Position numbers and translations under genes: made by a program. A stretch of 63,092 nt of DNA, the filler included, from Reclinomonas americana ATCC 50394 (lineage: Eukaryota): NCBI GenBank assembly GCA_048213135.1. It is 26 parts of 26 records of this genome, joined end to end, with 100 filler letters (N's around TTAATTAATTAA, not from the genome) between each part and the next. Parts side by side here need not be neighbours in the genome. Positions count along the whole stretch, not along the records: positions 1,728 to 4,575 come from AFZH01024778.1; positions 4,676 to 5,873 come from AFZH01024779.1; positions 5,974 to 7,615 come from AFZH01024780.1; positions 7,716 to 10,553 come from AFZH01024781.1; positions 10,654 to 12,368 come from AFZH01024782.1; positions 12,469 to 13,933 come from AFZH01024783.1; positions 14,034 to 15,393 come from AFZH01024784.1; positions 15,494 to 18,316 come from AFZH01024785.1; 18 more parts are not named here. The stretch is one strand, 5' to 3'. Below the pieces are notes generated by a model, which was given only the letters and a program-made list of their open reading frames with translations, had not been told where the DNA came from and made no database searches. This document shows, piece by piece, positions 3,449-58,258 of the stretch; positions within the stretch are counted from its first letter, which is position 1, and each line of letters starts with the position of its first letter.

Positions 3449-3743
3449 ATGAACCCTGAGGACTTTGCCCCCCCTGTCGATGGTGCGTCCATTATGCTCA
3501 TGCCTTGCTGTGCGTCCGCCCAGTGACTGACTTTGTCTCTTCTCCATGCAGCGTCGGCTGAGTTCAAGACTGGCTGGGAGAGTGGCCTGCACCCGCGCAC
3601 GGGCGCATGGATGTTCCACATGCCCAGCGTTGCGTCTCTTCCCCCTCCTTTTCTCATGTTCTCTTCTCGCTCACCTCTGCTTCTACGTACAGGAGCAATA
3701 CGCTGAGGGCTTCTTCGCGGCCAAGAGCGCTGCGGGCTGGTAA
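3449..3743 (+). CDS. Three-exon 53-aa small protein
   Basis: Exons 3449-3482, 3552-3628 and 3693-3743 join in frame: MNPEDFAPPVDASAEFKTGWESGLHPRTGAWMFHMPSEQYAEGFFAAKSAAGW*; A-rich context before the ATG. Confidence 0.65.
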
Positions 3744-3981
3744 TCGCTTGCCATGAAGTAGGCACCCTCCTCCGCCTCTCCCACGAGTGTGTTGGAGTGT
3801 ACGTACGGGCTGCGTGCCTTTTGGTGCAAGTCACCGCCACCACCATCTATCTTTTTTCCGTGTTTTTTCGATTGTGTGCGTCCTTTCTATAATCCGCGTT
3901 GTGCGCGGGGACGCCACGTGATGAAGCCGCTGATTGTACTTCTGGGAATTGTGTAACATGCAAACAACAACTAAAAGGGGA

Positions 3982-4400
3982 TTATCTGGCGGGAGGGAGG
4001 GGTGCCAGGTGCATGGATTCGAGCGCGCGCATGGCCTCCTCCATGCTGCACACAAAAGATGAGAAGGTGTGGCAACAACAGCAAAGCAACAAACAACGTA
4101 CGTTGGTCTCTGGGTCGGGTCGTACTGCAGGCAGTGGACCATGAGCTGAATGAAATCGGGCGGCAGCATGGTTCCGCTCTCCTTGTCGGCCAGTTGTCGC
4201 ATGCGCTCGCGTGACACGCTGAGTGCCAGAGTGCCTGCGCGTTTGTTTGCGTAAGTGATCGAGAAGCGACGAGGCTACAATACAAGCGGTGGACGCACCG
4301 ACTGCCAGCTGATGCAGCACCGACATTGGATTGAGATCGGTGAACGGGCGTTGCTGGTGGGCGAGTTCCCACAGTACCACGCCGAAACTCCACACATCGG
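3982..4400 (-). CDS. Protein kinase C-lobe (TKL-like), last exons
   Basis: DVWSFGVVLWEL..QRPF..LNP and CLQYDPTQRPT across GT-AG introns. Confidence 0.85.
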
Positions 4401-4575: not shown

Positions 4576-4675
4576 NNNNNNNNNNNNNNNNNNNNNNNNN
4601 NNNNNNNNNNNNNNNNNNNTTAATTAATTAANNNNNNNNNNNNNNNNNNNNNNNNNNNNNNNNNNNNNNNNNNNN

Positions 4676-7500: not shown

Positions 7501-8072
7501 ACGACAGGCGGTGTACTGCGTGACGAGGAGAAGGGATGAGCGAAGAAGAGAGAGAGAGAGAGAATAAACAATGTGATCCACACCTGGGGCATGCCACAGT
7601 GGCACACCGGCCTTGNNNNNNNNNNNNNNNNNNNNNNNNNNNNNNNNNNNNNNNNNNNNTTAATTAATTAANNNNNNNNNNNNNNNNNNNNNNNNNNNNN
7701 NNNNNNNNNNNNNNNAGGCGGAGGCGCCATTGGGGATGATGCCTGGGAGGGAGATGGTGTGGAGGAGGACAGCTTGCCAGTGCCACGCATGGCGCGTGGG
7801 CGCACCGGCGTGCCAAGCTCGTCGCTGTGCATGTGTGTGCGTCTGTCAGAGTGCAGAGGAGAGGCGGGGGCGAGAAAGTGAGCAGCGAGAGATCGATGGC
7901 AAACCTCGGCTGTGAGTCGCTCACTGCCGCTGGCGCGGGAGACGACATGGTTTTTGCACGTGCGTGGTGTGCGCTCCCGATCACCCTCCCTTTCGTTGTG
8001 TGAACTGACTGGCAGACTGGGACGTGAAGTTTGTGTGTTAGGGGCACTTTGATGAGACGACAACGTCGCAAT

Positions 8073-9189
8073 TCAATCGTCATGTCTCAATGGCTCGTCG
8101 ACCTCGCCGTCTTGCGTTTCTGTAAGCTCGTCGTCAGCATCTCCATCCTTCTCCTCTTCTTCTTCCTCCTCGTCTTGATCTTCCTCTTCCTCGTCCTCGT
8201 GTTGCGGACCGTCCTCGGCAAGACGCACTTTCGGCCGGTTGGTGTCCTTGAGCTTGCGATCGCGGCGTACGTGTACTCCATGTGCCAGGCGCGCTGCGAC
8301 ATCCGCGTGGGAGACGACAATGTCGCCGATAAGGTCAATGTCGAACGCCTCGGGGTGCATGCGCATGTCGTCCACGGCTGGCGCACCCTCAAACGACTCG
8401 GGGTGCATCATCAAGGCCAGGACGGCTTCGCGCTGCGCCTTGCGATCCGAGCGCATGGAGCGTCCGGAGTTGGAGCGCGGGGCGTTCTTGAGCCGGTCGC
8501 GCAGGGCAGCAGCAGCTTCGGCACCGGTCACGTAACGCCGTTGGCCACCGGAGCTCCCGTCGTCATCGCCCAGTGACGACGAGCTGCGAGAAGAGGATCC
8601 GCGCGACACCGAGGTCGGCACCTGTAGTGTGATGGAGCCTTCGGTGGGTGTGACCGTTCGTGAAGCGGAGCCCGATTGCCGCTGCGAGGTGACGCCTCCT
8701 TTTCCCGTCGAGGTCCAGCTGCCGACAGTATCCAACGCAAAGAAGTGGGTGCTGCCCTGCAGGAAACCACCGTTCTGTGCGCACACGCGGTGCACAATTC
8801 AGCGCACGGCAAGCAGGCTGCAACGACCATGATGTGACACGTACTTGTCGCAAGAGTGGTGGACGTGAGCCATTCGAAAGCGGTGCCGATTCGCTGGAGG
8901 AGACTGACGATGCGCGCTGTCGACCATCGGTCAGCGGTGGAGGCGCTTCAGTGGAGAGCCACAACGATCTGTTGACTGCTGTTCCGGGGTTGGGCTGTGT
9001 AGATTCCGATCCTTCTTCGGGTACTGCAACGTTGGAAGTTACACACATCTGTGAGTACGCAGACTGCAAACGGTGGTGTGCACAAAGTGGGCACCTGGCA
9101 CAGGCACTGGTATGGGTTCGTCGTCCATGTCCTGCAAAATGTGCACTGAATGTGAGCGACTTACCGGTGGACCGCATTCGCATGCTTCA

Positions 9190-9249
<60 letters not shown>

Positions 9250-10553
9250 AGCGATACGCACACTCAGTTCCGCCAATCGTCGAGCCAGTGCTTGCTCGCG
9301 GCCGCCACCGTAGCGCTCAGTGAGCTTGTGATGCAATGGACCCTGCGTTCGCCACGTAAGGGGAGCGCACGCCGAGTACAAACACAACCATACAGTCGAG
9401 AGTGTACCAGTGCTGACACGTGACTGAGGGCGTCGCCACGCGACGATGACATGATCGAGGTCGACATGTCGTCATCGTCGCCGTCCACCGCAGTGGCGTC
9501 GGCGTCCGACACATTCAGCCACGAGTGTTCGAGCAACTCCAGCGCCGACGGCCGTTGCTCTGGATCTTTGCACAACACACTGCTCATGCGCACGCGTTAT
9601 GCACGGACTGTGTGGACAATATTACGTGTAGGCGACAGACCTGCGAAGAAACTGGACGGCATCGGGGGATATCGTCGAGTCCTCGGGAAACTGCGGCTCC
9701 GTGTCGCGAATCTGCTTGGCCAGCGCCAGCGGCGACGGGCGCCATGGACATCGGCCATACAGAAGCGCATACATTGTGACGCCAAAAGCCCACACATCGC
9801 ACGCCGGACCGAGCACTGGTTGGCCTGTTGCGCGGTCATTGGTGAGCGAACTGCGCACAAGTTCAGTGCGCAAAGAGGTGCACGTACCAGACAGAGCCTC
9901 TGGTGCGATAAACATGGGGGTGCCGCAGTCCATGCGAACCGGCTCGTTTGGCGCAATGAAGCGCGCCGATCCAAAGTCACCGATTTTCACCCGCGAGGAT
10001 TCGCTGACGAGGAGATTTTCGGGTTTGATGTCGCGGTGCACAACACACGCCGTGCCATTGTTGTGCAAGTACGCCAGTCCACGAAGCACGTCCTGCGCAC
10101 AACGACGCACACTCGATTCGTCGAGACGCGGGGTCACCGGCAGCGCGACACCATCGTCATCCAGTCGCATCAACGGACCCTTGCCCATCAGCTCCATTAC
10201 CAGGTACACGGTGCCGTCGACCACCTCCAGAACCTCGCACAACTGTCAACAACAACAAGTGAGTACCACAGAACGTGAAGAGCATGCGGAGTAGGGGATC
10301 AACAGTGTGGGAGGTGACGAAACCCGAACAACGGATGAGTGTCGCAGTGAGCGGAGAAGTTGTATCTCGCGCTTCACGTCGTGATGTGTTGTCAGGCCGC
10401 GACTCGCCATGAAACGGTCTCTCTTGCAGACTTTGATTGCCTGCGCCACATGTCAGCAATCATATATGTGTGCATGTGCGTGCGCGTGTTGAAATGGATG
10501 AACGCAACTCGGGACTTGCCAGTGTGTGAATTAACAGCGTACCACACCTCCCC
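8073..10553 (-). CDS. Ser/Thr protein kinase (CaMKK-like) with long C-terminal tail, multi-exon, 5' truncated; allele A
   Basis: AIKV, EIQLLRSLRH, HRDIKPENLL, DFG, GTPMFIAPE, DVWAFGVTMY, KDPEQR. Confidence 0.9.
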
Positions 10554-10723
10554 NNNNNNNNNNNNNNNNNNNNNNNNNNNNNNNNNNNNNNNNNNNNTTA
10601 ATTAATTAANNNNNNNNNNNNNNNNNNNNNNNNNNNNNNNNNNNNNNNNNNNNGCGACGGAATGGTGGCGGCAACTTGGCACCACTCCGCCCGGATGTGA
10701 ACCCGGGCGAAGTGGTTAGCGCG

Positions 10724-11518
10724 TCAAAGCGCGCGAAGGATCGCAGCTTCGACTGGCGAATAGAGGCCGCCCTCGCGGTCGAGGCTCAGTGGCTCGCGCG
10801 GCAGCAGCGGCGGCTGGGCCAGAAAACGCGGCATTGTGCCGCGATGCGGCTGCGCGCAATGCACCAGGAAGGGATGGCAGAGATAGACCGTGCCGGCCTG
10901 CCCGGTCGCCAGCACCTCATCGCGCCCGGCGCTGCCGGCGAAGCCGTCGGCCGCCAGTTCGCGCAGCGATAGTCCCGCTTCTCCTGCCGGCGCGAGCTGG
11001 CGGGCGATATCATGATGCGAGCCCGCCCTTATGCGCGTCGGCGCATCCTCCACGCCGACATCCGAAAACAGGAAGAGCATCAGCAGCGCCCTGCCCTTCG
11101 AGGCGAGGTTGACGCGCCAGTTCATGAAATTGGGATCGTCGAAGCCGAAGCTGACATCAACGTGCCAGCCGGTATCGCCCGGGTCGTCCGCAGAAGGAAA
11201 ACGCACCGGGAAGGTGCCCATGGCCCGGCAGGGCAACCAGCGCCCCGCGCCGACCAACTGGTCGAAGGCAGAATGCAGGCGTGGCGTGTTAGCCGCTGCG
11301 ACGAAGGGCGCGTCCGTGTACATGCCGAGCCGGATCACCGGCCTGGTCCAGCTCGCCGGGTCGCTCGGATCGCAGCCGAGATCGCGCCAGAGGATGGCGC
11401 GAACCTCCTCGGCGAGTGCGGGCGGGAAAGCGCGGTCGAGGCGGACGAAGCCGCGCTCGACGAAATGGGCGATCTGCGCGTCGTCGAGCGCGCGCGCACC
11501 GAATTCAGGATGAGTCAT
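10724..11518 (-). CDS. Phytanoyl-CoA dioxygenase family (Fe/2OG) protein
   Basis: F.ERGFV.L N-terminus, WHVD (HxD), T.I.AGSH, G.AGTVYLCHPFLVH. Confidence 0.88.
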   Translation of the reverse strand: MTHPEFGARALDDAQIAHFVERGFVRLDRAFPPALAEEVRAILWRDLGCDPSDPASWTRPVIRLGMYTDAPFVAAANTPRLHSAFDQLVGAGRWLPCRAMGTFPVRFPSADDPGDTGWHVDVSFGFDDPNFMNWRVNLASKGRALLMLFLFSDVGVEDAPTRIRAGSHHDIARQLAPAGEAGLSLRELAADGFAGSAGRDEVLATGQAGTVYLCHPFLVHCAQPHRGTMPRFLAQPPLLPREPLSLDREGGLYSPVEAAILRAL

Positions 11519-11649
11519 TGATGGACGTCTTTCGAGATCGGCCAGCCGAGACGCCCGCCGCGCGGGCAGGCTGGCAAGGGACCTTCGGACGCAAGGCGCG
11601 TCCGTTTGCGGAGCCGGGGCGCGAAACGCGCGTCAGGCCCGAAGTTAGG

Positions 11650-11682
11650 TCAGGCGAGATCGAAGACGGCGAACATCATCAT
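11650..11682 (-). CDS. Putative leader peptide MMMFAVFDLA
   Basis: 10-codon uORF between a sigma70-like promoter and a hairpin-rich leader of the dioxygenase. Confidence 0.6.
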   Translation of the reverse strand: MMMFAVFDLA

Positions 11683-11691
11683 GGCACCGGC

Positions 11692-11720
11692 AGTATCGCA
11701 GCCGCGCCCTACCCGATCAA
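11692..11720 (-). promoter_or_regulatory. Sigma70-like promoter
   Basis: TTGATC-N17-GATACT on the minus strand, 9 nt before the uORF ATG. Confidence 0.6.
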
Positions 11721-11816
11721 CCCGCGAGCGGGAATCTGAGCCGAAAGGCGCGCTGGCCAAGCCGGCGGCAGCGCTGCAACGATGCGGGCCTTCCCGGATT
11801 CGGGCCCGAAGATTGA

Positions 11817-12368
11817 ATGCGGATCGCCATCCTCTCCGACATCCACGCCAACCGCGAGGCGTTCGAGGCGGTGCTGGCGGCCGTGCGCCGGCTGGAGCCC
11901 GATCGGCTGGTGCTGCTCGGCGACATCGTCGGCTATGGCCCCGAGCCCGGTTTCTGCGTCGATGCGGCGCGCGAGCTCGTCGCGGCCGGCGCGATCGCGA
12001 TCCGCGGCAACCATGACGAAGCCGCGGTGCACGGCTCATCCGGCATGACGCCGAATGCCCATGAGGCGGCGCTCTGGACCAAGGGACAGCTCAACGCCGA
12101 GCAGAGCGCTTTCCTGGATGATCTGCCCCTGACGGTGGAGCTCGACGGCGTGCTCTTCGTCCATGCCAGCGCCCGCGATCCTGCCGCCTGGCACTATGTC
12201 CGCGATCTCCGCAGCGCCGAGGCCTGCCTCGCGGCGACGGACGCCGCGACGATCATCTGCGGCCACACCCATCTGCCGACGATCTTCTACGCCAGGGCCG
12301 GACGCGAGCCGGTGGCGTTCATCCCCTTGCGCAACGTGCCGGCGCCGCTTTCGGCCGTGCACCGGCAT
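11817..12368 (+). CDS. Metallophosphoesterase (3' truncated)
   Basis: SDIHAN, LGDIVGYG, RGNHD, VHAS and GHTH motifs. Confidence 0.92.
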
Positions 12369-16153: not shown

Positions 16154-16339
16154 CAATCTTTCTCACTCTCTCTCTCTCACACACACACATGCAGTTGCAA
16201 TCGACGGCGGTTATTGCGAAGGAAGAAAACGACAAGCAGCGTGTCGCAATGCCGCGTGCGGTCTGCATGCAATACGCTCCTGTTTGACGAGCCAGGCATG
16301 ACTGTCCATGGATCGATGGTGAGAAACGGAGAGCGAGGG

Positions 16340-17050
16340 AGGAGAAGGAACAATGCAACAGGGACAACGCACAGAGACGTCCGAGCCTTGCGATGCATGC
16401 ACCGGCGATGGTGGGAGACAGGGAGAGAGACAACTCTCCATTTGAGCAGGATCACGGATCGTGCTGCTGAACAGACGTCGACACAATGAATGAATGAGTG
16501 AGGAGAGCGAGGGAGGGAGAGAAGGAACAATGCAACACGGACAACTCACAGAGACGTCCAAACCTTGCGATGCATGCACCGGCGATGGTGGAGACAGGGA
16601 GAGAGACAACTCTCCATTTGAGCAGGATCCGGATCACGGATCGAGCTGCTGAACAGACACAATGAATGAACGAGTGAGCGAGGAGAGCGAGTGAGGGGGG
16701 AAAAGGAACAATGCAACAGGGACAGCACACAGTAACGTCCGAACCTTGCGATGCATGCACCGGCGATGGTGGAAACAGGGAAAGAGACAACAATCCATTT
16801 GAGCGGGGGATCACGTGCACGGATCGTGCTGCTGAACAGACACAATATATTAATGAATGAATGAGTGAGTGAGCGAGGAGAGAGAGGGAGGGAGAAGGAA
16901 CAATGCAACGGGGACAACTCACAGAGACGTCCGAGCCTTGCGATGCATGCACCGGCGATGGTGGGAGACAGGGAGAGAGGCAACAATCCGTTGGAGCAGG
17001 ATCACGAATCGAGCTGTTGAACAGACACAATGAATGAATGAATGAGCGAG
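16340..17050 (-). repeat. Tandem array of four units of about 180-190 bp, each resembling an exon plus intron
   Basis: Core CCTTGCGATGCATGCACCGGCGATGGTGG recurs four times; each unit has a CAG acceptor and GT donor on the minus strand. Confidence 0.85.
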
Positions 17051-17689
17051 TGAGGCAGACGCGGTTGATTTCCCATGCACACCCCACGGCGCACATACGC
17101 ACGTACCTCCAAAAGATGCCAATGTCGCCACATCCAGCAGGTCATCTTCTTTTCTCCTTCTCCTCCTCCTCCTGAAGGAGAAGACGATATCGATGAGATG
17201 GCACAACAGCAATGACTGAGGGCCGATAACAAAATTCGGTGGAGGCGAATTGGGATCAATAATCGTCCGGATGGAGGAGGTGGAGGCGCGAGTCGCGCTC
17301 CATGAGTGTCTCTTGCATCATCAACCAGAGCGCCTGTGCGAGCAAGAAACCAAACTGATGAGCGAGAGCACGCAGCGTGAGAAGAGAGCTCGAGAAAAAG
17401 AGAGAAACAGGACGATGGGCTGCTGCGGTGTGGAGGTTTCTCTTTTCTTACTCTCTTTAACGACCAGTCTTTCTCTCTCTGTCTCACTCACACCGACACC
17501 GCTTCTTGCGTCAAGTACACGAAGATCGATCTTCCTTCTGTGTTCTGCAAGCCAACGGCTCAAAACGGCAACAACAGCAACCACACACACACGAAAACAT
17601 TCACTCTCGTTGCGCATCGGCAGAATAGAAAACGGGACAAGCGGCGCGCGGACAGCACGGCCGTGAGAACAAAGTGAGTGGAGAGAGAA

Positions 17690-18768: not shown

Positions 18769-18781
18769 GGCGCTTGCCAAA

Positions 18782-22900: not shown

Positions 22901-23990
22901 AAAGTGCAACTGCCGACCTTTGACGAGGCCGAGTTGAGCCGACTGATCACTGTGGACATTAATTGCCCGAGTCTGGTCGAGTACCTTCGCGGTTTTGACA
23001 TTGCACTGCTGGTGCTGCAAAAGAGCTGTTGCGTTGTTGTTGTTTCTCTGCTCTCTTGCTGTCTCTTCTCTGCTCCGCTCACGTTGCCCAGACGCCATTA
23101 CACGCGCGTTTTATGAAATGGCCGAGGATGCCTCGAAGGATGGTGTCAGGTACCTCGAGATCCGCTTCAGCCCGCTGTTGCACACTCGGGAAGGCCTTGC
23201 GCTGTCGCAGATTATGGAGGTATGTGTCCACCGAAGAGGCATTCGCAGTTGAGTCGCTCACACACTGCAGGCTGCGCTCGAGGGACAAGTCATGGCGGAG
23301 AACCACTTGAATATCATTGTGCGAATCATTTTGTGTGGAATGCGGTGCGTTCCGCTCTCCTCTTGTCATGCTTGTCATGGTCTTCCGTTCTTCCTCTCTT
23401 CTCCGTGTCTTCAACTGAATCTATCATGCTTGCAGTCAAATGCCCCCGCGTGTCACCAAGAACCTGGCCGAAATCGCCTGGCGGTACCGCCATCGTGGTG
23501 TTCGTCAGCTTCTCCGCTCCGCTCTCCTTTGCTCTTCACTCACGTGCACGGGGCGCACAGGTGGTGGGCTACGACTTGGCCGGCCCCGAAGACGGTTTCA
23601 GCTCGAAGCAACATCAAGAGGCGTTCGACATTGTTCGCCGCAAGTGCGTCAATTGCACCCTCCACTCGGGCGAGGCCGCCGGTTCGCAGGCAGTGAGAAT
23701 TCGCGCGCGATTGCATATGTGGCTGATTTTGGTTATTGGGGGCAGGATGGGAGTCGATCCTGGACAGCATCCGCTACTGCGGTGCGCAGCGTCTCGGCCA
23801 CGGTGTGCGTCTGGTGGAGAGCGAAGATTTGCTGCAGTATGTCGTGGACCAGCGCATTGTGATCGAGTCCTGCGTCACCAGCAACCTCCAAACCAAGGCC
23901 GTCGAGTCGCTCGACAAGCACCCCATTCGTCGTTTCTTCGACGCCGGCATTATTGTGGTGCCGTGCACCGACAATCCAACCGTGTCCGGA
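22901..23990 (+). CDS. ADA: Adenosine deaminase, internal exons
   Basis: SLVEYLRGFD, DGVRYLEIRFSP, GYDLAGPE, TLHSGEAAG, QRLGHG, ESCVTSN, CTDN across five in-frame GT-AG introns. Confidence 0.93.
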
Positions 23991-28414: not shown

Positions 28415-29161
28415 TTACTTGTCGGAAGCCATGCGGTACTTGATGAGAGCGTCCGAGAGCGGCCGCCAGTCTCGTTTCCGTTGTGCGTCCTTCAGGAAGT
28501 TGCCCAGATATGCGTCCTTGAGTGCGGCAAGTTTGCGCTTGCTGGCAGCATTTGGAAACAGTGAACCCTGCGTCGGAACGGATGAGCAAGTCACACAACA
28601 AGAAAAGCAACAACAAAGAAGCATCACCAACCTGGTGTGCCCTAAACAGCTCCGCGCCCAGGACTCCCGACAAAAACCACCCACTGGCCGCCTGACATTC
28701 CGGCGACAACAACTGGTGGTACTTGGCGCAGAACGAGACCACCAGATCGACAAGATCTGCCGGATCAGAAAAATGATGATGAGTGCTACTCTCTTTGTGT
28801 GCGCCCCTCTCTCTCCTCGACTACGCAACTGTGCTCCACCAACAGCTCCATGATGCGCGCCTCCGGCAGCACCTCCAGCTTCTTGGCGACCTCGGCCAAG
28901 TAGAAAATAACTTGCGCCTCCTGGCACTTGCCGAGTTCTGGTCTGTCCTCCAGCGGCGCGGCTGGTGGCTCCTCCAGGGTCGGTCGCAGCACCTTGGCCG
29001 CGTGCTCAAACAACAGTGGCAGATCCGTCGTCTGCAATGATTCTTGCGCCTGGTACGACACGCGCAGAATCTCGCCCAGCGAGTGCTCCAACTGGTAGAT
29101 GCGATGTTGTAGTGTGTCGGCGTCGAGTGGTACACTGGCTTCCGAGGCTTCGATGAGGGCC
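28415..29161 (-). CDS. Hypothetical helical protein, last three exons
   Basis: In-frame joins VEH/NLVDLVV and RAHQ/GSLFP; ends ...YRMASDK*. Confidence 0.7.
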
Positions 29162-31458: not shown

Positions 31459-32781
31459 AAAGTGTGCTTGACTCCCCTCTCTTTGTGTGCAGTGCGGAAT
31501 CTCATTGTGCATGGAGTCGGAAGTGTCACTTTGATGGACGATGTTGCGTGAAAATGCATCTAACTCTCTTGTCTCTCCCTTGCTCTCTTGCTCTCTTGCT
31601 CTATCACTCACTCTCCGTCTGTCTCTCTTTGCGTGCATGCTCAGGTCAAGTCCGATCGCGCGGAATGCGTCTTATCGGAGTTTAAGGAGATTGCAGCGGC
31701 ACATGCGTGCGAGCTGCACAGTGCACAGTGGGTGCCCATTCGCAGTGCAGCAGAGCTCAAGGTCTTCTTCTTCTCTTACCCCCGTCATCATCCTCACTGC
31801 ATTCCTGACGCTGATCGGATGATATTAATAGTTCGATTCGATTGTGGATTGCCGATCGCTGGCAGGCGACGAGTACTTGGAGGAGGCCGGTGTCACACAG
31901 TGCGCACTGGTGTCGTGTCGGGCCGTTGGACCAGTGGGCGCTCTGGTTGGTCAAATCATGCGTACCTGTTGCTCTCTCTGTCTGTTGTCCTCATGTGCGA
32001 GATGAGCGCAGTGGTGTCCGCGTTTCCGGCGAGCCGACGATGCTTCCCCGGACGCCCTGGTGCACTTGATGGTGGCTGCGGAGGAGCTGAGTGCGTCTCG
32101 TGGTGGGAGTGCGCCGAGTGCAGACGAGCTGCGAGGCAAGGTAGGGCTGGCGATGTGGGATGAGCAACTGGCGGCGGTGGTGCTCGGGGACGATGTGCCG
32201 GCGGCGCCGCCGGTGGCGGCTGTGATCGGTGGAGCTGCGGCGCTGAACGTGCTGCGTGTGCTGCTGGCCGATGTCGATGAGACGCTGCTCGGCGCGCCAT
32301 TGTCGGCATTGTCGTTTGATGTGCTGGCCGGGTGGATTGCCACCGAGCAGCAGGTGAGAGGGAGAGAGTACTCCGTGGCTTGTGTCATGGAGTTTCTCAT
32401 CACGCATGTGCACTCGCAGCGCCGACAACTGCGCGATGCGGTGGTGGCTGTCGGTGGAGCCGGCGCGCTGAGTGGCGAAGTACTCCGACTGTTGGCCGGC
32501 AGCGGCGTGGCCGGTCGCGGTGGCAAGGGGTTCGTTCTGCTTCACGCTCATTCTTTGGTGTGAATGAGCTCACCCATTGTCCGTGTTGTCGTGCAGCGCC
32601 ATTCATGTGTTTGACGACACGCTGGTGCACTGGTCGTCGGCGTCGTTGCATCCGTTGCTGAGTGTGGCCGACATTGGCGATTACAAGTCGCGGGCGTCGG
32701 CGCACGCTCTTTCGCGTATGCACTCCCTCAACGAAGTCACCGTCATCCCGCACACGTCGCCGCTGAGCACTGACTCGCCAG
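31260..32781 (+). CDS. Divergent ubiquitin-activating enzyme E1 (UBA1-like), 3' truncated; allele A
   Basis: Two ThiF-like repeats: RL..ARVLV..L..VGVEVVRNLIVHGVGSVTLMD and V.V.GAGALSGEVLRLLA.SGV...GAIHVFD...DIG.YKS. Confidence 0.75.
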
Positions 32782-40117: not shown

Positions 40118-41454
40118 GGAGGAAAAGTGTGCTTGACTCCCCTCTCTTTGTGCAGTGCGGAGTCTCATTGTGCATGGAGTCGGAAGTGTCACTTTGATGG
40201 ACGATGTGCGTGAAAATGCATCTGACTCTCTTGTCTCTCCCTTGCTCTCTTGCTCTCTTGCTCTATCACTCACTCTCTGTCTGTCTCTCTTTGCGTGCAT
40301 GCTCAGGTCAAGTCCGATCGCGCGGAATGCGTCTTATCGGAGTTTAAGGAGATTGCAGCGGCACATGCATGCGAGCTGCACAGTGCACAGTGGGTGCCCA
40401 TTCGCAGTGCAGCAGAGCTCAAGGTCTTCTTCCTCTTCTCTTACCCCCGTCATCATCCGCGCTGCATGTCTCCCTTGCTGACACCGATCGGATGATATTA
40501 ATAGTTCGATTCGATTGTGGATTGCCGATCGCTGGCAGGCGACGAGTACTTGGAGGAGGCCGGTGTCACACAGTGCGCACTGGTGTCGTGTCGAGCCATT
40601 GGACCAGTGGGCGCTCTGGTTAGTCCAATCACGCGTGCGTATTGCTCTCTCTCTGTCTGTTGTCCTCATGTGCGAGATGAGCGCAGTGGTGTCCGCGTTT
40701 CCGGCGAGCCGACGATGCTTCCCCGGACGCCCTGGTGCACTTGATGGTGGCTGCGGAGGAGCTGAGTGCGTCTCGTGGTGGGAGTGCGCCGAGTGCGGAC
40801 GAGCTGCGAGGCAAGGTGGGGCCGGCGATGTGGGATGAGCAACTGGCGGTGGTGGTGCTCGGGGACGATGTGCCGGCGGCGCCGCCGGTGGCGGCTGTGA
40901 TCGGTGGAGCTGCGGCGCTGAACGTGCTGCGTGTGCTGCTGGCCGATGTCGATGAGACGCTGCTTGGCGCGCCATTGTCGGCATTGTCGTTTGATGTGCT
41001 GGCCGGGTGGATTGCCACCGAGGAGCAGGTGAGAGGGAGAGAGTACTCCGTGGCTTGTGTCATGGAGTTTCTCATCACGTATGTGCACTCGCAGCGTCGG
41101 CAACTGCGCGATGCGGTGGTGGCTGTCGGTGGAGCCGGTGCGCTGAGTGGCGAAGTACTCCGATTGTTGGCCGGCAGCGGCGTGGCCGGTCGCGGTGGCA
41201 AGGGGTTCGTTCTGCTCCATTCATTCTTCGGTGTGAATGAGCTCATCTATCGTCCGTGTTGTCGTGCAGCGCCATTCATGTGTTTGACGACACGCTGGTG
41301 CACTGGTCGTCGGCGTCGTTGCATCCGTTGCTGAGTGTGGCCGACATTGGCGATTACAAGTCGCGGGCGTCGGCGCACGCTCTTTCGCGTATGCACTCCC
41401 TCAACGAAGTCACCGTCATCCCGCACACGTCGCCGCTGAGCACTGACTCGCCAG
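39918..41454 (+). CDS. Divergent E1-like enzyme; allele B
   Basis: Near-identical exons to 31260-32781. Confidence 0.75.
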
Positions 41455-41691: not shown

Positions 41692-42554
41692 AGTACGCGA
41701 ACGGGAGGATGCATCAAGACACACACGCACACACACACACCTGCGCCAACGAGTACGGCACAGAGCTCGGCAGCAGCACCGCATGCAGCGTGCGCACAAT
41801 GTCGGGCACCACATGCGCATACACATCGCCAGCACGCAAGTGTGCCGTCGCAGCTGTCGCCGCAAACTGCGCACACTGCGCTCGCACGCCCTCATTGTCG
41901 TTGGCCGAGATCAGCGACACGACGTGTTCACACAATGAGTCGGTCTGTGGACTCAGTGCCTGCCCTTGCATTGCTCTATACAAAACACACAGGCGTGAGC
42001 ACGCGAGGTGGCAGATGGAGAGTGGGAGAAGAGGAGGAGGAGGAGGCATGTACCTGCGCTGCACCACAATCTCATACACCACGCGAGCGGTGATGACAGC
42101 GGCCTTGAGTACAGGCACTGATCGGTCGTCATGCAAGACGAAATCCAATGCAGGCAAGGTTGATTCCGCCACTGCAGCGAGTCAATGAGCACACAATGCG
42201 CGCGCACAGAGAGAAGAAGTGTGAGTGTGCGTGTGCGCAACAGTCAGGGCGCAGTCGCACTGCATCGGCAATGAACGACAAGACCCACTTGCGCTGATCG
42301 GCGTTGGACGAGGAGATCATCTCACACACAAGTGGCAACACAGTCGACACTTCATCGTCTCCTCCTTCAGCAACAGTCTTGCCTGCCTGCGCCGCCTGGC
42401 GTCTTCGCAGGCAGAACTCGGTGAGCGCGGCCAAACGCTGTGCAAGCTCCTCGCGTGACGATGCCGGCAACATGGCCTCGTGCAGCAAGTGCGTGGCATG
42501 CTCAATGGCTGCCTGCTGCGAGGCGGCCAGTGGAGCCTCGCTGGCGTCGCTCAT
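41692..42554 (-). CDS. SYMPK: Symplekin/Pta1 N-terminal region (3' truncated)
   Basis: HEAT-like ...RKWVLSFI.DA..., L..L..D....VLK.A..., DNEGVR..C..F. Confidence 0.7.
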
Positions 42555-46196: not shown

Positions 46197-47337
46197 ATGG
46201 GTCGGCGACGCGAAGGCCAGCTCCGTCTGCGCGACTATGCCCGCTTCACAGAGGAAGCGCGTCTCATGTTAATGGAAGAGTTTGCTGTCAACGCGGTGAG
46301 CACACACATATCTCTCTTGCGCAGTTCGTATTCGTCAGACAGTTTCTCTGGTAACAACACACACTCTCTCTCCTCCCTCTCTCTCTTGCATTTGTGTGTG
46401 TGTGTCTCGTCGTTCCTCGTGTGGTGGAACGCACAGTGAGGCACGTGTTGTGCACACTCGTGTTGTGCGTTGGGCAATCATTTTTTGTGTGAACGCATGT
46501 GCGCATGTGTGTGCGCATGTGTGGTGTGTGTGTGTGCGAGAGAGAGAGTGTTCCTCTTTCACTCTCTTCCTGTATTTTTTCGTGAGACGAGCACATTGCG
46601 CGTGTGTGTCTGTGTGTGTGTGCGCGCATGCATCGACGGGGTCAGCGGAGTGCATTACCTTTCTCAGACATGCATTTACTCCTGTATGTCGTCGCGTACT
46701 TGTTGCCTCCCGGTATGTCCGTGAATGTCGTGGAACACAACCTTTTTCCCACGCAAGGAGAGGCACATTGCGCAGAATGCGTGTGTGGCGCGAGAGAGGC
46801 GTGATAGAAGACGGGATTGCAATGAGTTGGGCGTTGACCCAAGAGGCAGTGAGGCCGTTTTCAGTGCATTTTGGAACCCCACCTGTCTGGCGATTCAGAT
46901 GTTGTTTTTGACTTGACCATTTTTTCCCTCTCGCGCGCTTCCTCTTGTTGCATTCACGCTGTCTTATACTGATGGTTTTGTGTGCCCTCTCGCTGCATGC
47001 ACAGTACCCTGATCGGCGGCGGAAGAGACAGTTGGCAGAACGTGTGGGCCGTTCGCTGAAGAGTGTCAATCGTTCCGTTCCGGTGTCGTCTGTTGATTGC
47101 CATGCGCGTCTTCTCATTCCTTGCCTTAGTCTGGTTCGAAAATCAACGGAAGAAACAGCGGCGATTAGGCGTGCTGCTGGTGCCCCCGCCGCCCGGCGGC
47201 GGTCACCGAGGCGACGACGACGACGACGATGATGACGACAGCCTCGGCGACGATTTCGATGGCGATGCGCATGCACTCGACCCTTCTTCAATGGGCAGCG
47301 GCATGTCGTATCAGGGCTTTCCGACGCACGTGGGCCT
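46197..47337 (+). CDS. Non-TALE homeodomain protein (3' truncated)
   Basis: Exons 46197-46295, 47005-47071 and 47130 onward give RFTEEARLMLMEEFAVNAYPDRRRKRQLAERVGRSLKSVNLWFENQRKKQRR with exact homeodomain spacing. Confidence 0.88.
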
Positions 47338-48218: not shown

Positions 48219-48534
48219 AATGTTCTGCACGACGAGCACGAGGCATCAGTCAGTCACTCACATGTGCGTATGTGTGCGTGCTCAGTGCAAGAGTGGAGAG
48301 AGAGATGAGAGAGACAACCAACTTGAAGAAGAGGCAATGGCGCGCAAGCTTTTTTTTTTGGCGCGCCATGTCACACAAACACACACACGCGCGTGCACAC
48401 ACAGAGACACACATGCAAGTGTGTATGTGAAGAAGGACGCAACGTCGCCCATGATTACTCTCTTGCTACACCACCACACGCGAATTGGAAAAAGATTGAA
48501 TTTTTACAGTCGCCTTTTCGCCGTTCCCGCTCCA

Positions 48535-50150
48535 TCAATCCAGCTCGGCCTCATCCTTCTCGCCCTCCTCGGCCACTCTCCTCTTCTCGATCTCGCGCTG
48601 TCGAATAATCTCACGCGCTTCGTCCTTTTCCTCAGTCGACACGGCCTCACCGTCCTGCACGTCACACACAGTAAGCCACCCATGCGTTGCGTCAGTTACC
48701 ATATGCATCCAAACGCAACGAGTCCCGCCAGGTTGATCCAGTCGTCCACGTCGCGCAGGAGAGCGGCGAGCACTTGTATCCGTGGCAACTCGGGCTCGTT
48801 CTCTTGCAGGTACAGCTCGGTCAGTGATTCGTGTGCAGCAAAGGCGGCCAGCTCCTCCGGACCGCTGAGGACGTTTCCGCTGAGACGCACACAGCGCAGC
48901 GACGGCGGCTCGTTGCCGACCGGCTCGATGCGACTGATGCGGTTCTGCGAGGCGTCAATCTCCTCCAGCGATGTGAGGGTGGTGAGGTCTTGTAGTGTGG
49001 TGAGGAAGTTGCGAGTGACCACCAGCGTCTTGAGTGCCGGCGCCTGAATACCCATGAGCTCCGTCATAAAGTTGTTGTGCAGATCCAGCGTGATGAGCGA
49101 CGGCATCACACCGCCGCTGTCGAACTGCTCGAGGAGATTGCTGGCCAGCAGCAGCGTGGCCAGGCTCGGTGCCACTGTCTGCGCCACGCCGTCGCCCACG
49201 AGTGCCACTCGTGAAATCGCATTCTCCGTGACCGACAAGTACTGCAAGTGCGGCAGGGCCAGCAGCAGCGGCGAGATGTCCCGAATGGCGTTGCGGTCGG
49301 CGCGTAGTGAGCGCAAATTCTCCAACTGTGCCAGCGGCGAGACGTCGGTGATCTTGTTGTCGCACACATCCACGTGCTGCAGCGACGCGCGGAACACGCG
49401 AATCGGATCCACGTCCAGCAGACTCTTGGCCTGCAAGGGGGGAGAGGCAAGAATGAGCTCTCTTCCACCAACCAGGAATGCCGGAGAGAAAACCCAGACA
49501 CGCAACGCTGAGCGTGCATACAGTGTAGCTGTAGCGCATCTCGGCACCCGGCAGCGCGGCAATGGCCGACAAGGCCGTAGTCACCACCCCATCGGTGCAC
49601 GGCTTGCAGTTGCGCGGACGGTCGAGCGCGGCGTGGCGCTGCATGGCGGTGACCAGTGGGTCGCCCTCCGCGTCCGCAGAGGTGCGCACAGGCTGCGCAC
49701 ACGCATGCAGCATCCACTGGTTCGCCGCCTCGTCCTTGTAGATCTTGAACAGCAAGAATGCTGTGCGATTATGACGTTAGCCGCGCGATGACACGCTCCC
49801 AGCACCGATTCGACTGTACCTCCAAACACCGACGCATCCACCTGCCACTGGTGCGTCACCGCGCCCGTCGAGTCCGCCACCGTGTTCTGCACTCGTCCCA
49901 ATCCACCGCCCGACGTGCTGCCACACACACTAGCACATCAGCGCACGAAGCCCTGCAATCTTCCACGACTGACAGGCATACACACCTCTTGAGCAACACA
50001 TAGAGAGCCGTGGTCGCCGGCATCTTGTCGAGGCCCACAGTCAATCGAATCGTGACACTGCCGGGATTGGCCGCCACCGGCGCCGCCGGCGGCGCATCGT
50101 CACCCGCCTCTTGTCCCTCACTGGCCTCGGTGGGTGCCACACTACCACGC
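48535..50150 (-). CDS. LRRC23: Leucine-rich repeat protein, LRRC23-like (axonemal)
   Basis: Y....LSAKSL.D...LQHVDV.DNKITDVSPL..L..L..LRADRN.I, LPHLQY.S...N.I, terminal LDGE....EE..EA. Confidence 0.65.
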
Positions 50151-53460: not shown

Positions 53461-55888
53461 ATGCGCGGTGGCAGAGGAGGCTCCTCGAGTCGTGGCGCCA
53501 AGACGCGCGGAGGCAGTCGCGGAGGTCGCGGTGGAGGACGCCGTGGCCGCGGCCGCGGCGGTTTCGCGTACGGAGACTTTGCTGCGCGCGATATGCAGCG
53601 AAAAGACCCGTTTGAGCAGCACGACGACGACGAGCAGGCCAGTTCCGAGGAGGACTCGCGCGGACCACGCATGTCAGAGAAGCGGATGCGGCAAGTGGAA
53701 CAGGAAATTCGTCAAGTTGCGTCTCTTGTGTGTGCGTGTGCGTGTGCATGTGAATGTGCACGTGACACTCACACACACGCACCTCGCCCTGCGCGTGTAG
53801 TATGGTCATGTGGGATCGCTGGAGTTTGACGGGTTGCCTCCGGGATTCATTGATGAGGAGCTTGACAGTGATCTGGAGGAGTTTGGAGGCACCAAGCGAG
53901 CATCGCCTTCCGCTGAAGATGATCGTCGCGTGGAGGACTTCCTCGCCAGCAGCAGCGATGATGATGACGATGATGATGATGAGAGTAGTGTGGAGGCGCA
54001 AGTGACTGGCAAGCGACGTGCACGCAGCGATGACGACGATGAAGAGGAGGATGAGCTGGAGGCACGAGCGCGACACGTTCGCATGTTGTCAGCGGTCGCG
54101 CGTGACAGCGATGGTGCACCTCCGCGCAAGGCACTGAAGATTGGCGAGGTGACGGAGAAAGGCGGGCGGACTGCGGAGTCGCAGTTTGCGCTGGGCTCGG
54201 GCGGCAAGGTCACGCTGCGCGATCTCGTGGGCTCGTTGCAGAGCAAGGACGAGTTTGGCAACGTGCAGAAGCAGATGGAGCGCCTGACGCAGGTCAAGGT
54301 GCGTCTGTGTGTTTGTGGCGATGAGGGTGGAGGGCCGACACTCAGTTTGTGTGTGTGCAGGGCGTCGTGGCACCGCCACTGGCCAAGACCACGCAGGAGA
54401 AGCTGACGCGCAAGGTGGCGTACGAGCACATGAAGGACACGGTGACAGAGGACTGGCAGCAGATTGTGACGCAGAATCGTGATGTGCGTCGTGCTATCCC
54501 TTTGCGCGCGCACACATACATATATAGATAGCTGATCAAGCGCGCGCGCACACACACAGGCTGAGCATTTGCGATTCCCGCTGAACGATCCCGGGCGTAG
54601 CTCGGTTACTCATGCTTCGTTGGTCAGCGAGCACAAGGTTTGCTCGAGCACGTGTGTCGATCTCTTTTTCTGCAACTCACCTGCGCCAATGACAGCCGCT
54701 GACAAACATGGAGCGTGAGGTGTCGGACATGCTCAAGCAGAGTGGCATCACCGAGCCGAAGCTCGTCAACTTTGAGGAGGCGAAGCTGGCCGAGATGGAT
54801 CCAGCAGAGGTCTTGCGCGCGCTACTTTTTTGGCTTGATTCTTTCCCCCTCCCCTGCTGACACAGCTCGCAGGCCGAGAAGCGACGCGCCGAGTTGGCAC
54901 AGATGCGCAGCTTGCTCTTCTTCCACGAGCGCAAGATGAAGCGTTTGGCGCGAATCAAGAGCAAAAAGTACCGCAAACTGCGCAAGAAGGAGAATGTCAA
55001 GCTGTCGCTGGAGGAGCTGCAGCAGATTGATCCGGAGCTGGCACGTCAAGAGGCCGAAAAGATGGAACTTGGTCGGGCCAAGGTGGGGAGGGGAAGGGGG
55101 GAGGGAGGAGAGGAGAGGAGGAAACGGGAGACGAGAGAGGGCAGGAGTGTGGAGAGGAGAGGGGAGGGAGGAGAGGGGAGGAGATAGGAGGAGACGGGAG
55201 ACGAGAGAGGGCAGGAGTGTGGAGACGAAAGTGTGGAGAGGAGAGGGGAGGAGAGGAGGGAGAGAGAAACCTGCGCGGGAGGGGGAAGGCGAAGAGGGGA
55301 GCGGAGAAGGGAGAAAGAACTTGCGGAGCCTAGCGCCTCGTTCCTACTCGCTTGTTCTTCCTCTCGTTTCGCTACCCCTCACTCACATTCATACCGTCCA
55401 TCACAGGAACGCATGACTCAGCGGCACAAGAACACCTCCAAGTGGGTCCGACACGCGCTCTCGCTGAATGGTGCCGCCGGCAAGGAGGTACTGTCGTTCA
55501 ACGCTTTTTTTTTTAGTCGTTGCTGTCACTTACGCGTTGCGGTTCGGTCGGCAAGGTGCAAAAAGCCATTTCGGAGCAGCTTCGCATTGGTGACGAGCTG
55601 CGAAAGAAGGTGCAGTCCATGGACGACGATGATTCTGGCGACGAGAAGGACGGCAGCAGTGACGACAGCGATGCATCGACGGATGACCTCGGCATGGCGG
55701 AGATGGATTCCTCTGAACGCGCCAAGGCCATGCTGTGGAAACTGAAGAGCAAACAGGAGCCTGATATGCCGCAAAAGGTCTCCCCTTGCGAAGCATCTTC
55801 CCCTCACCATCTCATTGCTGACTAGTTGCGTGCTGCTGCTGCAGGGTCTGCTCGGCATGAAATTCATGCGCGATGCCGCCGAAAAGAA
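53461..55888 (+). CDS. UTP14: U3 snoRNA-associated protein 14 (3' truncated)
   Basis: PL.K..QEKL.RKVAYE, W..IV.QNR.AEHL.FPL, ELA.MRSLLF..E.K.KR..RIKSKKYRK, ERMT.RHKNTSKW, GL.GMKFM. Confidence 0.95.
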
Positions 55889-56140
55889 NNNNNNNNNNNN
55901 NNNNNNNNNNNNNNNNNNNNNNNNNNNNNNNNTTAATTAATTAANNNNNNNNNNNNNNNNNNNNNNNNNNNNNNNNNNNNNNNNNNNNTCTCTTTCTTCC
56001 TAACTCGTGTGTGCAATGTGCAGAAGAGTGGTGGGGCGACTGGCCAAGGACGTGCGTGTGTCTGTTGGTGGGCTGCTGGAGAATGTGTACATGATTGTGC
56101 GGACGATGCAAGAGTTTGCGCCGGCGTCAGTGTAATCGTC

Positions 56141-58258
56141 TCATGATGATGATGATGATGGTGAGGTGGGGAGCCATTCGTCGATCTGTGCCAGAATGGA
56201 ACCGTCGGCGGCACACCCCGCGAACTGCATGCCGACGCGCATTGCCCATTGCATCACCACGCTGTCGTCGAGCTCCAGGAACCATGTCCATGAGAAGTGG
56301 GGCTTGCGCACTGCTGGTGGGGTCAGTGTCTACTGCTGTGCGAGGGGAGGGGAAGGGCAGGCCGCGCAACTACCGCAGGTGCCGATCTCGCCGTACTTGC
56401 TCTCCAGTGCAGCCTTCTCGTCGTGGTATGCGCGCTCGGCGACCTCGCGATCGCGAGTGCCGAATGCGCGCCACATGAGCTCCGTGTCGGTGAAGACGCC
56501 CAGACGGGGAGCACCGAGTTTGAGCGACGTGCTGATGGCGGGTGTGGCTGACATGCGCCACGCAGGATGCAGTGGCGAGTGCGGCAGACACACCCAGTGG
56601 GAAAAGTCGACAAAGTGTGTCATTGGTGCGTCTCCCTGCACGTTCCAGTCGCCGCTGACGTCGTCGGCCAGAGCCTCCAAGTCAGCAAGTTCTGCACCCT
56701 CTGGCCGCTTGAGGGACAGCGGCAGTTGTTCCGACGTCACGCCCCACTTGTTGAGAACGTGACGCAGCTCGCGACAGTGACCGCGCGCCAGCTGCTGCAG
56801 GCGAGCCACCGAGTAGTCTTTCGTGTCGGAGCGAAGAAGCGAAGCTCAGTGAGAAACACACGCGCACTCGCGATCGCACAGCCACCGACGCAACAGACGA
56901 CTTCGTCGTGACACGACACGAGCCGCGACTGCCTCTGCCGCAGCGACAGCACACATCGGTCGCCCTTGTAGCCGGTGGCCGGATTGGCGCAATCTTCGCG
57001 GAACCGCAACCCCGTGTCGACAATGGCATAGAACTGCACCGTGGACCAGGCGGCACCCTCTAGTTCGGCCAGTCGCTGCATCAGCCGCTGGTACGCCAGC
57101 TCCTTCAGTGCCTGTGTGTGCAAGTGAGGCGAAGGAGAGGAGGAGGAGGAAGAGGAGGTCAAAATAACACTGAACGTCGGCCAGGTTCAGGAAGCCGCAC
57201 GCCTTGCGCTCAATGTCCGACTGCAGCACCGTCGTTCCGCAGCCCTTGACATCAATCATGCCGGCTTGCACGTTGCTGTCGTCGTCGAACCAGTACTTGT
57301 CATCGACAAAATACGTACACGCACGCCCGCCGCCCTTCATGCGCAGCGCCGACTTGGTGCGGCTGCGATCGACCACCTCGTCGACACTGCCGCTCGAACC
57401 CAAGTCCAACAAGTCGTGCATGTCGCCACCAGGAGACATGCGGCGCACCTGGCGGCGCACTGTCAGCGAACATGCAAACACACACCACTTGTCAACGAAC
57501 AACTCACCTGCCCGGCCGACAAGTACGCCGTCTGCTCAATCACCCAGGCATCAATCGCCGCCTCGTCCAGCTCCGCCAGCTGCTCGGCAAAGTCTCGCCG
57601 AAGCAGGGCATAGTCGGCCGCCAGCACACGCGCATGTCGGAGCCTGGCAAAGCCGTCTTCCAAGGCGTCGAAATCGAGAGCACCAACATCCTTGTGCATC
57701 TCTGCTGCTGCATTGTGCTTCCAGTAGTACCCGTGGCCGAGCCAGCTCTGCCGATCTGCCTCATCGTTGCCGGTCTGCCACAGGGAATCGTCGACCACCT
57801 CACACGGAGTGGGCGGCGGAAGCAAGGCCGGCTGCATGCACAAGTGAACGTATGCGCGGACAGGAGAGTATGTATACGAGTAACAACGCAACAGTGTAGT
57901 GCTGCTCCCGTGCAGCCAGGTCGCTGAGCGTGAGATGATCCGACACGGCCAGTCGACGAGTGTAGTTGTGCGTGGACAGCACTCGACAGATGGCGTCGGC
58001 GCTCTCCAAGAGACTCTCCTCGCTCAGCACATGCGTCGGGTCGGCCGCGGGCAGAGTGCTCCACTCGGATGCCAGTGTGCTGCCGAGCTGTCCGCGAGCG
58101 TGCATGTGTCGCAGCGCATGTACCATCATGCGCACCTCCTCCACATGACGGCCGTGCGGGAATGCAGACGGCAGAGTGTATTGTTCCTGAGAGGCGATGA
58201 TGAGACGGGAGAGAGAGAGAGGGAAAGAACAAGCGTGTTGCCTGTGCGTGCTCACCAT
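56141..58258 (-). CDS. SelO-like (pseudokinase/AMPylase-fold) protein, complete multi-exon gene; allele A
   Basis: RVLAADYALLRRDF, GGGRA, IDVKGCG, G.L.LADALKE, NVQ...VDF; six GT-AG introns restore the frame. Confidence 0.6.

Follow-up and report, generated by a model that had tools for sequence, protein, structure and literature searches.

A candidate major class of 5′ splice sites in Reclinomonas americana with its conserved core one nucleotide deeper in the intron

Introduction

The G at position +5 is among the most conserved positions of introns, and the distance between a splice signal and the cut that it specifies is normally fixed. In human cells, shifted and bulged +2/+3 registers of pairing with the U1 small nuclear RNA (snRNA) have been proven with suppressor U1s (PMC4856993); Table 3 of that article puts the bulge +2/+3 register at 68 predicted and 54 curated sites in a set of 201,541 human 5′ splice sites, and the validated noncanonical registers together at 1.5%. 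In the preprint of Roy and Bowser (bioRxiv 10.1101/2022.06.08.495308), GUGCGC is described as the preferred donor of Mastigamoeba balamuthi, which has a candidate U1 with the 5′ end ACGUAC, in which a G stands where other U1s have U and pairs with +4C. The same source describes a +4C preference in Mamiellales and Thecamonas, where the standard U1 is kept, and changed U1 5′ ends in Entamoeba and Mastigamoeba. Here we examine 63,092 bases of DNA from Reclinomonas americana ATCC 50394 (GenBank assembly GCA_048213135.1), referred to below as the window, in which a sizeable group of predicted introns begins with GTTGCG, a donor (5′ splice site) with its G at +6 instead of +5.

A first-pass annotation of this DNA had listed ten GTTGCG introns and three related forms, GTTTCG, GTTCCG and GTTCAGT, and had proposed that the organism uses a one-nucleotide-bulged donor as a major class. 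At all 13 of the listed coordinates the motif is present on the strand given. The analysis below concerns how often GTTGCG is used as a donor, where the cut falls, how the class is built and which modes of recognition could account for it.

Results

GTTGCG is concentrated at predicted intron starts

All junctions reported here are predictions from genomic DNA, from homologs or from comparison of duplicate copies. Introns were predicted with a gene finder that combines three-periodic Markov coding scores with semi-Markov introns and was trained on the window itself. It demands that introns start with GT or GC and finish with AG; it has no donor profile and is therefore called donor-blind below. 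Version 1 predicted 95 introns, 11 of which start with GTTGCG; version 2, to which acceptor, branch-motif and length terms were added and which still has no donor term, predicted 100 introns, 12 of them with GTTGCG. Counting each of three duplicate contig pairs once gave a unique-locus set of 81 donors.

As a word, GTTGCG is not enriched in the whole window (54 matches against 59.08 +/- 6.95 in shuffled sequences), and any signal must thus sit in the location of its copies. Among the unique-locus donors it is the top hexamer, with 10 of 81, or about 12%, in agreement with the earlier claim of a major donor class. These ten come from 22 sense-strand occurrences among the 2071 GT sites in predicted genes (one-sided Fisher p 2.1e-9). 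The next hexamers are GTGCGT, of which 7 of 27 occurrences are used (p 5e-5), and GTTCGT, with 3 of 9. Decoy introns gave no GTTGCG start, neither among 18 predicted on discarded strands or regions nor among seven on bacterial-like contigs. The sequence data thus support GTTGCG(T/C) as a genuine and frequent donor class. A self-trained donor mixture (rounds 1-3) lifts GTTGCG to 13 of 79 donors; these rounds were left out of the enrichment claim because a donor model that is fed back is circular.

Comparison of the duplicate contigs bears on the reliability of the predictions. Between copies, 80 of 5912 nucleotides differ in predicted exons (1.35%), with a single indel of 3 nucleotides, and 74 of 1625 differ in predicted introns (4.6%), with 15 indels, mostly of lengths that are not multiples of three. 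This concentration of divergence and indels in predicted introns indicates that the map of exons and introns is broadly right. Seven finder donors could be tested by homologs or profiles, and five of them were right (four of five in an adenosine-deaminase-family gene, the only one in an Arf-family gene and not the one in a protein kinase gene). The Arf-family donor at 25700 is right in that profile positions 35 and 36 are contiguous across the junction. In the deaminase gene the finder was wrong at 23333, where homologs place the true donor, GTGCGT, at 23345.

These tests bear on the possibility that chance GTT-GCG (Val-Ala) codon pairs were mistaken for donors by the gene models. Such an artefact would be in keeping with the 12 of 22 sense-strand GTTGCG copies that are not donors, with the errors of the finder at testable sites and with the lack of homologs for several host genes. 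It is hard to reconcile with the Fisher result, which was reached by a donor-blind method, or with the empty decoys. Nor does it sit well with the verification of one junction (23028) by homologs, with the placement of indels between copies in predicted introns or with the four of 15 checked sites, 3629, 28829, 42241 and 57175, that have no other in-phase GT. We regard an artefact of this kind as highly improbable.

The predicted cut falls at the first G of GTTGCG

The clearest case is the 64-nucleotide, phase 1 intron at 23028..23091 (+), which starts GTTGCGT and was found by the finder and by homologs in the adenosine-deaminase-family gene, with Pfam A_deaminase matches on the flanking exons. 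We aligned 28 homologs of this 750-residue family, 23 of which span the junction. Cutting at the G of GTTGCG yields VLQKS-YAITRAF, which is gap-free against all 23, and the Tyr of the split codon is common to 21 of them; cutting at the GC 3 nucleotides downstream inserts an extra residue that is present in 0 of 23. The alignment shows the predicted cleavage at 23028 to fall at the first G of GTTGCG. The homologs that carry organism names are from Anaeramoeba, Stereomyxa and Pelomyxa, at 63-71% identity, and none in the protein collection is identical. One further homolog (64%) bears only a gene identifier, which we take to be from Mastigamoeba.

A second case comes from the ThiF/E1-like gene (weak Pfam match), in which version 2 of the finder placed a 102-nucleotide, phase 0 intron with GTTGCGT at 31543..31644 (+), with an in-frame stop 6 nucleotides inside it. 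The allelic or paralogous copy of this intron at 40206..40306 (+), in a contig about 97% identical, has 101 nucleotides and the ordinary donor GTGCGT. The two sites, GTTGCGTGA at 31543 and GTGCGTGAA at 40206, differ locally by one T only (an indel at 31544). They yield identical mRNA only if both are cut at GT, which implies cleavage at GT for 31543. More widely, each of the ten donor-blind GTTGCG introns has GT...AG ends and restores the reading frame when removed. In the related forms GTTTCGT (10323), GTTCCGT (47072) and GTTCAGT (57175) no GC starts at +4, and the cut must therefore be at GT.

The same observations decide against introns of the GC-AG type cut 3 nucleotides downstream (GTT/GCGT), in which GTT would be exonic and no G would be displaced. 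Such introns are present in most eukaryotes, and an in-phase GC lies at +4 of every GTTGCG site. Under this explanation, however, the deaminase would carry the residue that no spanning homolog has, and the copies at 31543 and 40206 would encode different proteins, given the plain GTGCG of the latter. The forms without GC at +4 would also fall outside it, and it would not account for exons that end in GTT every time, in two different phases. A cut at GC is therefore excluded at 23028 and very unlikely elsewhere, and the assignment of the cut to the first G in the first-pass annotation is upheld by the homologs at 23028 and by the GTGCG copy of 31543.

The donor class is an ordinary donor with one additional T

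After GTTGCG, position +7 is T in eight of the ten donors and C in two, which parallels the use of T versus C at +6 of GTGCG donors. The class thus corresponds to GTGCG(T/C), the commonest ordinary donor, with a single T added and with the G and the following T or C both displaced by one position. The related forms follow the same rule: GTTTCGT, GTTCCGT and GTTCAGT have CGT or AGT at +5 to +7, and ordinary donors have CGT or AGT at +4 to +6. It had been proposed that every form is an ordinary donor of this genome with an extra T; two of the four supposed parents are present among the 81 donors (GTGCG in nine, GTTCG in four), and the other two, GTCCG and GTCAGT, are absent from them.

The extra base is only ever T. 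Donors make up 10 of 22 GTTGCG sites versus 0 of 1 GTAGCG, 0 of 17 GTCGCG and 0 of 32 GTGGCG sites (p 1.2e-6). The last exon base also separates the classes, being G at -1 in 0 of 10 GTTGCG donors versus 12 of 18 GT(G/A)(C/A)G donors (p 0.0009). We also observed that G precedes all seven unique-locus GTGAG donors. An unsupervised two-profile mixture of the donor-blind donors (round 0) separated AG/GTG(C/T)GT (0.58) from GTTG(C/T)G(C/T) preceded by a base other than G (0.42).

The first-pass annotation had predicted an excess of G at +6 among donors that begin GTT, and this excess is found in the window. The 31 predicted donors in which +3 is T divide into nine with G at +5, 13 with G at +6 only and nine with neither; the corresponding counts for 386 non-donor GTT sites are 112, 69 and 205 (p 0.003 for +6G only). 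A T at +3 also fits the ordinary register, since GTTCGT (23500) and GTTCGC (23682) are verified by homologs.

In other respects the introns of the class resemble their neighbours. They are 60-102 nucleotides long (with one of 219), and their lengths, branch-like motifs and CAG ends are like those of other introns. A YTNAY branch-like motif lies upstream of a YAG acceptor in all ten, a count that is partly favoured by the acceptor term of the finder; nine of the ten, all but 31543, were already chosen without that term. The introns are not of the U12 type, for which the 5′ end consensus is (A/G)TATCCTT, as all of them start with GTTGCG, GTTTCG, GTTCCG or GTTCAG. An introner-like mobile family was likewise rejected, a blastn-short comparison among the 81 unique-locus introns having returned matches in GT and CT microsatellites only. 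The GTTGCG introns are not mobile copies of each other because their shared sequence ends at the donor.

Individual introns

The donor-blind finder recovered eight of the ten GTTGCG introns listed in the first-pass annotation (3629, 23028, 28829, 31543, 48719, 53716, 56370 and 57892). It added two, at 42241 (-) and 48443 (-), and left 49506 and 56894 ambiguous. Related genomic loci were at best 76% identical and gave no comparison of intron starts; the nearest few are on contigs of about 2.3-3.7 kb, presumed from their length to lack introns.

Both versions of the finder predicted the 64-nucleotide, phase 0 intron with GTTGCGT at 3629..3692 (+) in a small gene of 53 codons, which is itself weakly supported (score 8.3). 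From 45 nucleotides upstream of this donor to 20 nucleotides before the acceptor the only in-phase alternative is a GC, with no GT, and the intron has a CTCAC branch-like motif and a CAG end. The finder also placed a 73-nucleotide, phase 1 intron with GTTGCGT at 28757..28829 (-), in a gene without family assignment, where reading through would meet a stop at +41. The added intron at 42172..42241 (-) has 70 nucleotides, GTTGCGC and phase 1; a guess that its host gene is symplekin-like was dropped, no PDB relative having been found. In the Utp14 gene the finder predicted an 85-nucleotide, phase 0 intron with GTTGCGT at 53716..53800 (+). Here the Pfam Utp14 match lies on the downstream exons, and the junction falls in the unconserved N-terminal part of the protein.

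The finder's intron at 48655..48719 (-) has 65 nucleotides, GTTGCGT and phase 0; reading through would meet a stop at +21, and one other in-phase GT lies at -30. The gene had been called LRRC23. That it encodes a leucine-rich-repeat protein stands, and the more specific identity is without support. A representative homolog search with the leucine-rich-repeat exon returned giant repeat proteins only and did not settle the junctions 48719 and 49506, and in a length-limited search identity reached no more than 39%, or 34% for matches covering over half of the query. The intron also contains, 27 nucleotides inside, ACGCAAC, the exact reverse complement of the donor heptamer GTTGCGT, and the predicted fold of its 65 nucleotides (minimum free energy -19.8 kcal/mol) pairs the two. 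This modelled hairpin could be due to chance or could mask the donor.

Two introns lie in an orphan gene at 56141-58681 (-) that has a copy at 58981-61524 (-), and the finder chose both in each copy. The first, at 56311..56370 (-), is a 60-nucleotide, phase 1 intron with GTTGCGC, and its copy at 59154-59213 has the same donor. The second, at 57832..57892 (-), with a copy at 60683-60743, is a 61-nucleotide, phase 0 intron whose GTTGCGT donor is unchanged between copies though the body of the intron differs. A third intron, at 57112..57175 (-), has 64 nucleotides, the related donor GTTCAGT and phase 0, and was again found in both copies; the copy at 59955-60026 has 72 nucleotides, and this 8-nucleotide indel indicates that the intron is non-coding. 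The donors at 56370, 56894, 57175 and 57892 thus have counterparts at 59213, 59737, 60026 and 60743. The gene has seven exons, with a hydrophobic-rich first predicted exon. Its earlier label, SelO-like, has to be given up, as no exon has a Pfam match and no homolog was found for the 148-residue exon.

Three GTTGCG candidates are less certain. The 219-nucleotide candidate intron with GTTGCGT at 48225..48443 (-), which was absent from the first-pass annotation, follows a first exon of three codons in a putatively proteasome-beta-like (PSMB3-like) gene. The finder's choice is uncertain here, as many in-phase alternatives exist and an internal ATG might be the true start; the segment may lie in a 5′ untranslated region or contain no intron. 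At 49431..49506 (-), a candidate intron of 76 nucleotides with GTTGCGT, a rival GTATGCA lies 15 nucleotides upstream at 49521. The finder took 49521, 49506 was taken only in a self-trained round, and both are in frame. At 56818..56894 (-), a candidate of 77 nucleotides with GTTGCGT and an AAG acceptor (copy 59661-59737), the rival is GTGCGCG at 56867, 27 nucleotides downstream. Here the finder took 56867 and a self-trained round 56894; both are again in frame, and the first 30 nucleotides from the donor, including the 27 between the rival donors, are the same in both copies.

Of the related forms, those at 47072 and 57175 were chosen by the finder; that at 10323 was missed in favour of 10332, yet kinase homology backs it. 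The intron at 10243..10323 (-), in a protein kinase gene, has 81 nucleotides, phase 0 and GTTTCGT, that is, GTTCGT plus a T, and its copy has its donor at 38491. The end of the upstream exon, RHSSVV(R), aligns with RHPNII of DAPK3; this exon corresponds to positions 28-62 of the Pkinase profile, and the next exon begins near position 63. The finder's donor, 9 nucleotides upstream of 10323, would remove VVR. Among the in-phase alternatives, those at -9 and -6 cut VVR codons, and those at +54 and +57 lie only 24-27 nucleotides from the acceptor. For the kinase exon that follows, the alignment to PDB began at residue 7-12 and so did not pin the junction. The finder placed the remaining related form at 47072..47129 (+), a 58-nucleotide, phase 1 intron with GTTCCGT in a homeobox-like gene. 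The upstream exon matches positions 10-31 of the 40 in the Homeobox_KN profile weakly (E 0.013), and the VN-L-WF spacing of the joined product presumably fits helix 3 of the homeodomain consensus.

Composition of the window

The 63,092 bases comprise 26 contigs of 1.2-2.85 kb each and 25 identical linkers, N44-TTAATTAATTAA-N44. Because the window consists of joined contigs, genes on either side of a linker are not genomic neighbours. The linkers lie at 1628-1727, 4576-4675 and so on, and the contigs past 24332 run in decreasing size with one exception. Four contigs (1-1627, 10654-12368, 18417-20347 and 33038-35823) have 65-69% G+C. The bacterial-type domains TetR_N, BPD_transp_1 (an ABC permease) and SIS_2 occur in 18417-20347 and 33038-35823; the sole domain match in 10654-12368 is a sub-threshold PhyH, and 1-1627 has no domain match. 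By their sequence these four contigs look like bacterial contamination of the assembly. The remaining 22 have 46-61% G+C and contain short introns.

Three contig pairs are about 97% identical (7716-10553 and 35924-38711; 30152-32916 and 38814-41589; 55993-58730 and 58833-61573) and may be alleles, haplotigs or very recent duplicates. Some donors differ between these copies, with GTACACT at 9407 (-) versus GTACGCT at 37578 (-), and GTTGGTC at 31946 (+) versus GTTAGTC at 40619 (+), and donor sequence seems to vary freely between copies.

The window also contains a probable Tc1/mariner-like element, seen as a 350-codon frame at 12557-13606 (-) with DDE_3 and Tc3-type helix-turn-helix transposase domains. 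Degenerate tandem repeats, with units 74-89% identical, occur at 16328-17054, 17742-18102 and 62392-63092, and several contig ends bear GT and CT microsatellites. A single-exon frame at 24476-25138 (+) has a weak ankyrin match followed by a long, repetitive tail rich in Lys and Glu.

Discussion

Our analysis indicates that GTTGCG(T/C) is probably a genuine and frequent 5′ splice-site class of the U2 type, most likely recognized through a U1 register moved by one nucleotide. In this reading the intron would start at the first G, and the conserved GCG with its T or C would lie one nucleotide deeper, behind the extra T. The 5′ end of U1 would then pair one nucleotide further along, with +3U in place of +2U opposite A7 of U1, +6G in place of +5G opposite C4, and +1G perhaps on C9. 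The cut itself would still be fixed later at GU by U6, U5 and Prp8. All statements on snRNA pairing are inferred. At Rfam gathering scores no snRNA was found in the window, and at E <=1 there were six weak matches, none of them to an snRNA.

Displacement by one nucleotide, as claimed in the first-pass annotation, is borne out by the donors, and the bulge that was offered to explain it fits less well. To judge from the donor sequences, a register shifted as a whole accounts better than a simple bulge for the absence of G at -1 and for the strict T at +3. In the shifted register +3U pairs with A7, as a strict T would require, and C9 would be taken by +1G, which makes a G at -1 dispensable.

Duplexes were modelled between donors of the window (15 shifted-class, 22 ordinary) and two assumed U1 5′ ends, the standard one and the variant with G at position 5 that is described for M. 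balamuthi. With the standard end the mean energy was -0.8 kcal/mol for the shifted class, which is essentially unpaired, and -5.8 for ordinary donors; with the G5 variant the means were -4.7 and -8.8 kcal/mol. In the model the G5 variant pairs with the shifted class through +3:A7, +4:U6, +5:G5, +6:C4 and +7:A3, and often +1:C9. A U1 of this type would explain the dominance of GCG in the shifted class. We put forward, tentatively and as a possibility rather than an expectation, the stronger proposal that at least a tenth of the introns of this protist are routinely spliced with the 5′ splice-site register moved one nucleotide along. This would be enabled by a U1 5′ end of ACG (G5), with which UGCGU at +3 to +7 would form a stable helix.

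The near absence of standard U1 pairing in any register would also be compatible with a separate system that reads GUUGCG contiguously, through a second U1 complementary to GUUGCGU or through recognition by U6, U5, Prp8 or a protein. The altered U1 5′ ends of Entamoeba and Mastigamoeba and the sharp difference in -1 preference between the donor classes could be read in the same way. The branch-like motifs, CAG ends and lengths of these introns are, however, the same as those of other introns, a single T indel switches the class at 31543/40206, and these data hold no sign of a second U1. We consider a separate system unlikely.

Equally, the class may not be adapted at all. GTGCG donors with a duplicated T might be tolerated as weak sites if a short intron that has strong branch and 3′ signals depends little on U1 pairing; such damage would suit the occurrence of GTTGCG and GTGCG in the two copies of one site, the shortness of the introns and their strong branch-like motifs. 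Its frequency argues otherwise, since 10 of 81 equals or exceeds GTGCGT itself (7 of 81), a level hard to reach by damage alone. Moreover, at three sites both copies retain the donor although their intron bodies diverge by 4-5%, and a bias at -1 is unexpected from random duplication of a T. Tolerated damage could explain single cases such as the pair at 31543/40206, but it seems improbable to us as an account of the class, to about the same degree as a separate system.

Several points weigh against a shifted U1 register at a genuine donor class. The class was sampled at ten independent loci in about 50 kb of eukaryotic DNA, and the finder chose the wrong donor in two of seven testable cases. 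Verification at the level of residues concerns one GTTGCG junction only (23028), with 49506, 56894 and 48443 ambiguous, and the one-T indel at 31543/40206 sits in a run of two Ts, where an assembly error is possible. GTTGAG is used at 0 of 7 sites versus 7 of 40 for GTGAG, a difference that is not significant (p 0.57). The pairing model was built on an assumed U1 5′ end; with a standard U1 the shifted sites are nearly unpaired in it, and lineages that prefer GTGCG and have a standard U1 exist.

If the proposed register shift is correct, U6 must accept an offset of one nucleotide between the cleaved GU and the pairing of its ACAGAGA box, and a flexibility of U1/U6 register that is marginal in mammals would be mainstream splice-site recognition here. 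One intron in eight with its signal one base deeper would constitute a natural test of how the U1/U6 register can slide while the cut stays exact, and of whether changes of the U1 5′ end open new registers. In such a genome, gene finders trained on one donor profile would get about one intron in ten wrong.

Comparison with known systems

The nearest described counterpart is the shifted (+1) register of human 5′ splice sites (Roca and Krainer 2009, as presented in PMC4856993). There too GU is cut normally, the partners on the intron side lie one nucleotide downstream, +6G and +7U act as +5 and +6, and -1G is dispensable because +1G can pair with C9. The human sites form a very small minority, proven with suppressor U1s, and have UAAGU; the class described here makes up about 12% of predicted donors and has UGCGU. 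The human bulge +2/+3 register (Roca et al. 2012; Tan et al. 2016, as presented in PMC4856993) is alike in having GU-U followed by a normal consensus, with one of two adjacent Us bulging out, whereas the absence of -1G favours a full shift in R. americana.

Among lineages with similar ordinary donors, Mastigamoeba balamuthi shares the donor core GTGCG, the +4C and a GC-rich, intron-rich genome (bioRxiv 10.1101/2022.06.08.495308). It differs in that a term search of the preprint text returns no GUUGCG class, and +6 is mostly T here, not C. Mamiellales such as Ostreococcus (Irimia and Roy 2008, PMC2483917) also have a GTGCGT donor and ACTGAC/CTCAC branch-like motifs. Mamiellales and Thecamonas differ in their standard U1, and the passages on them in PMC2483917 and in section 16 of the preprint describe no shifted class. 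A literature search at the level of titles and abstracts found, among the papers listed, neither GUUGCG nor any other +1-displaced donor as a major class. GTGCG(T/C) donors and moved registers in human cells are known, and what, judged on that level, appears to be new in R. americana is a donor displaced by one nucleotide that serves as a major class.

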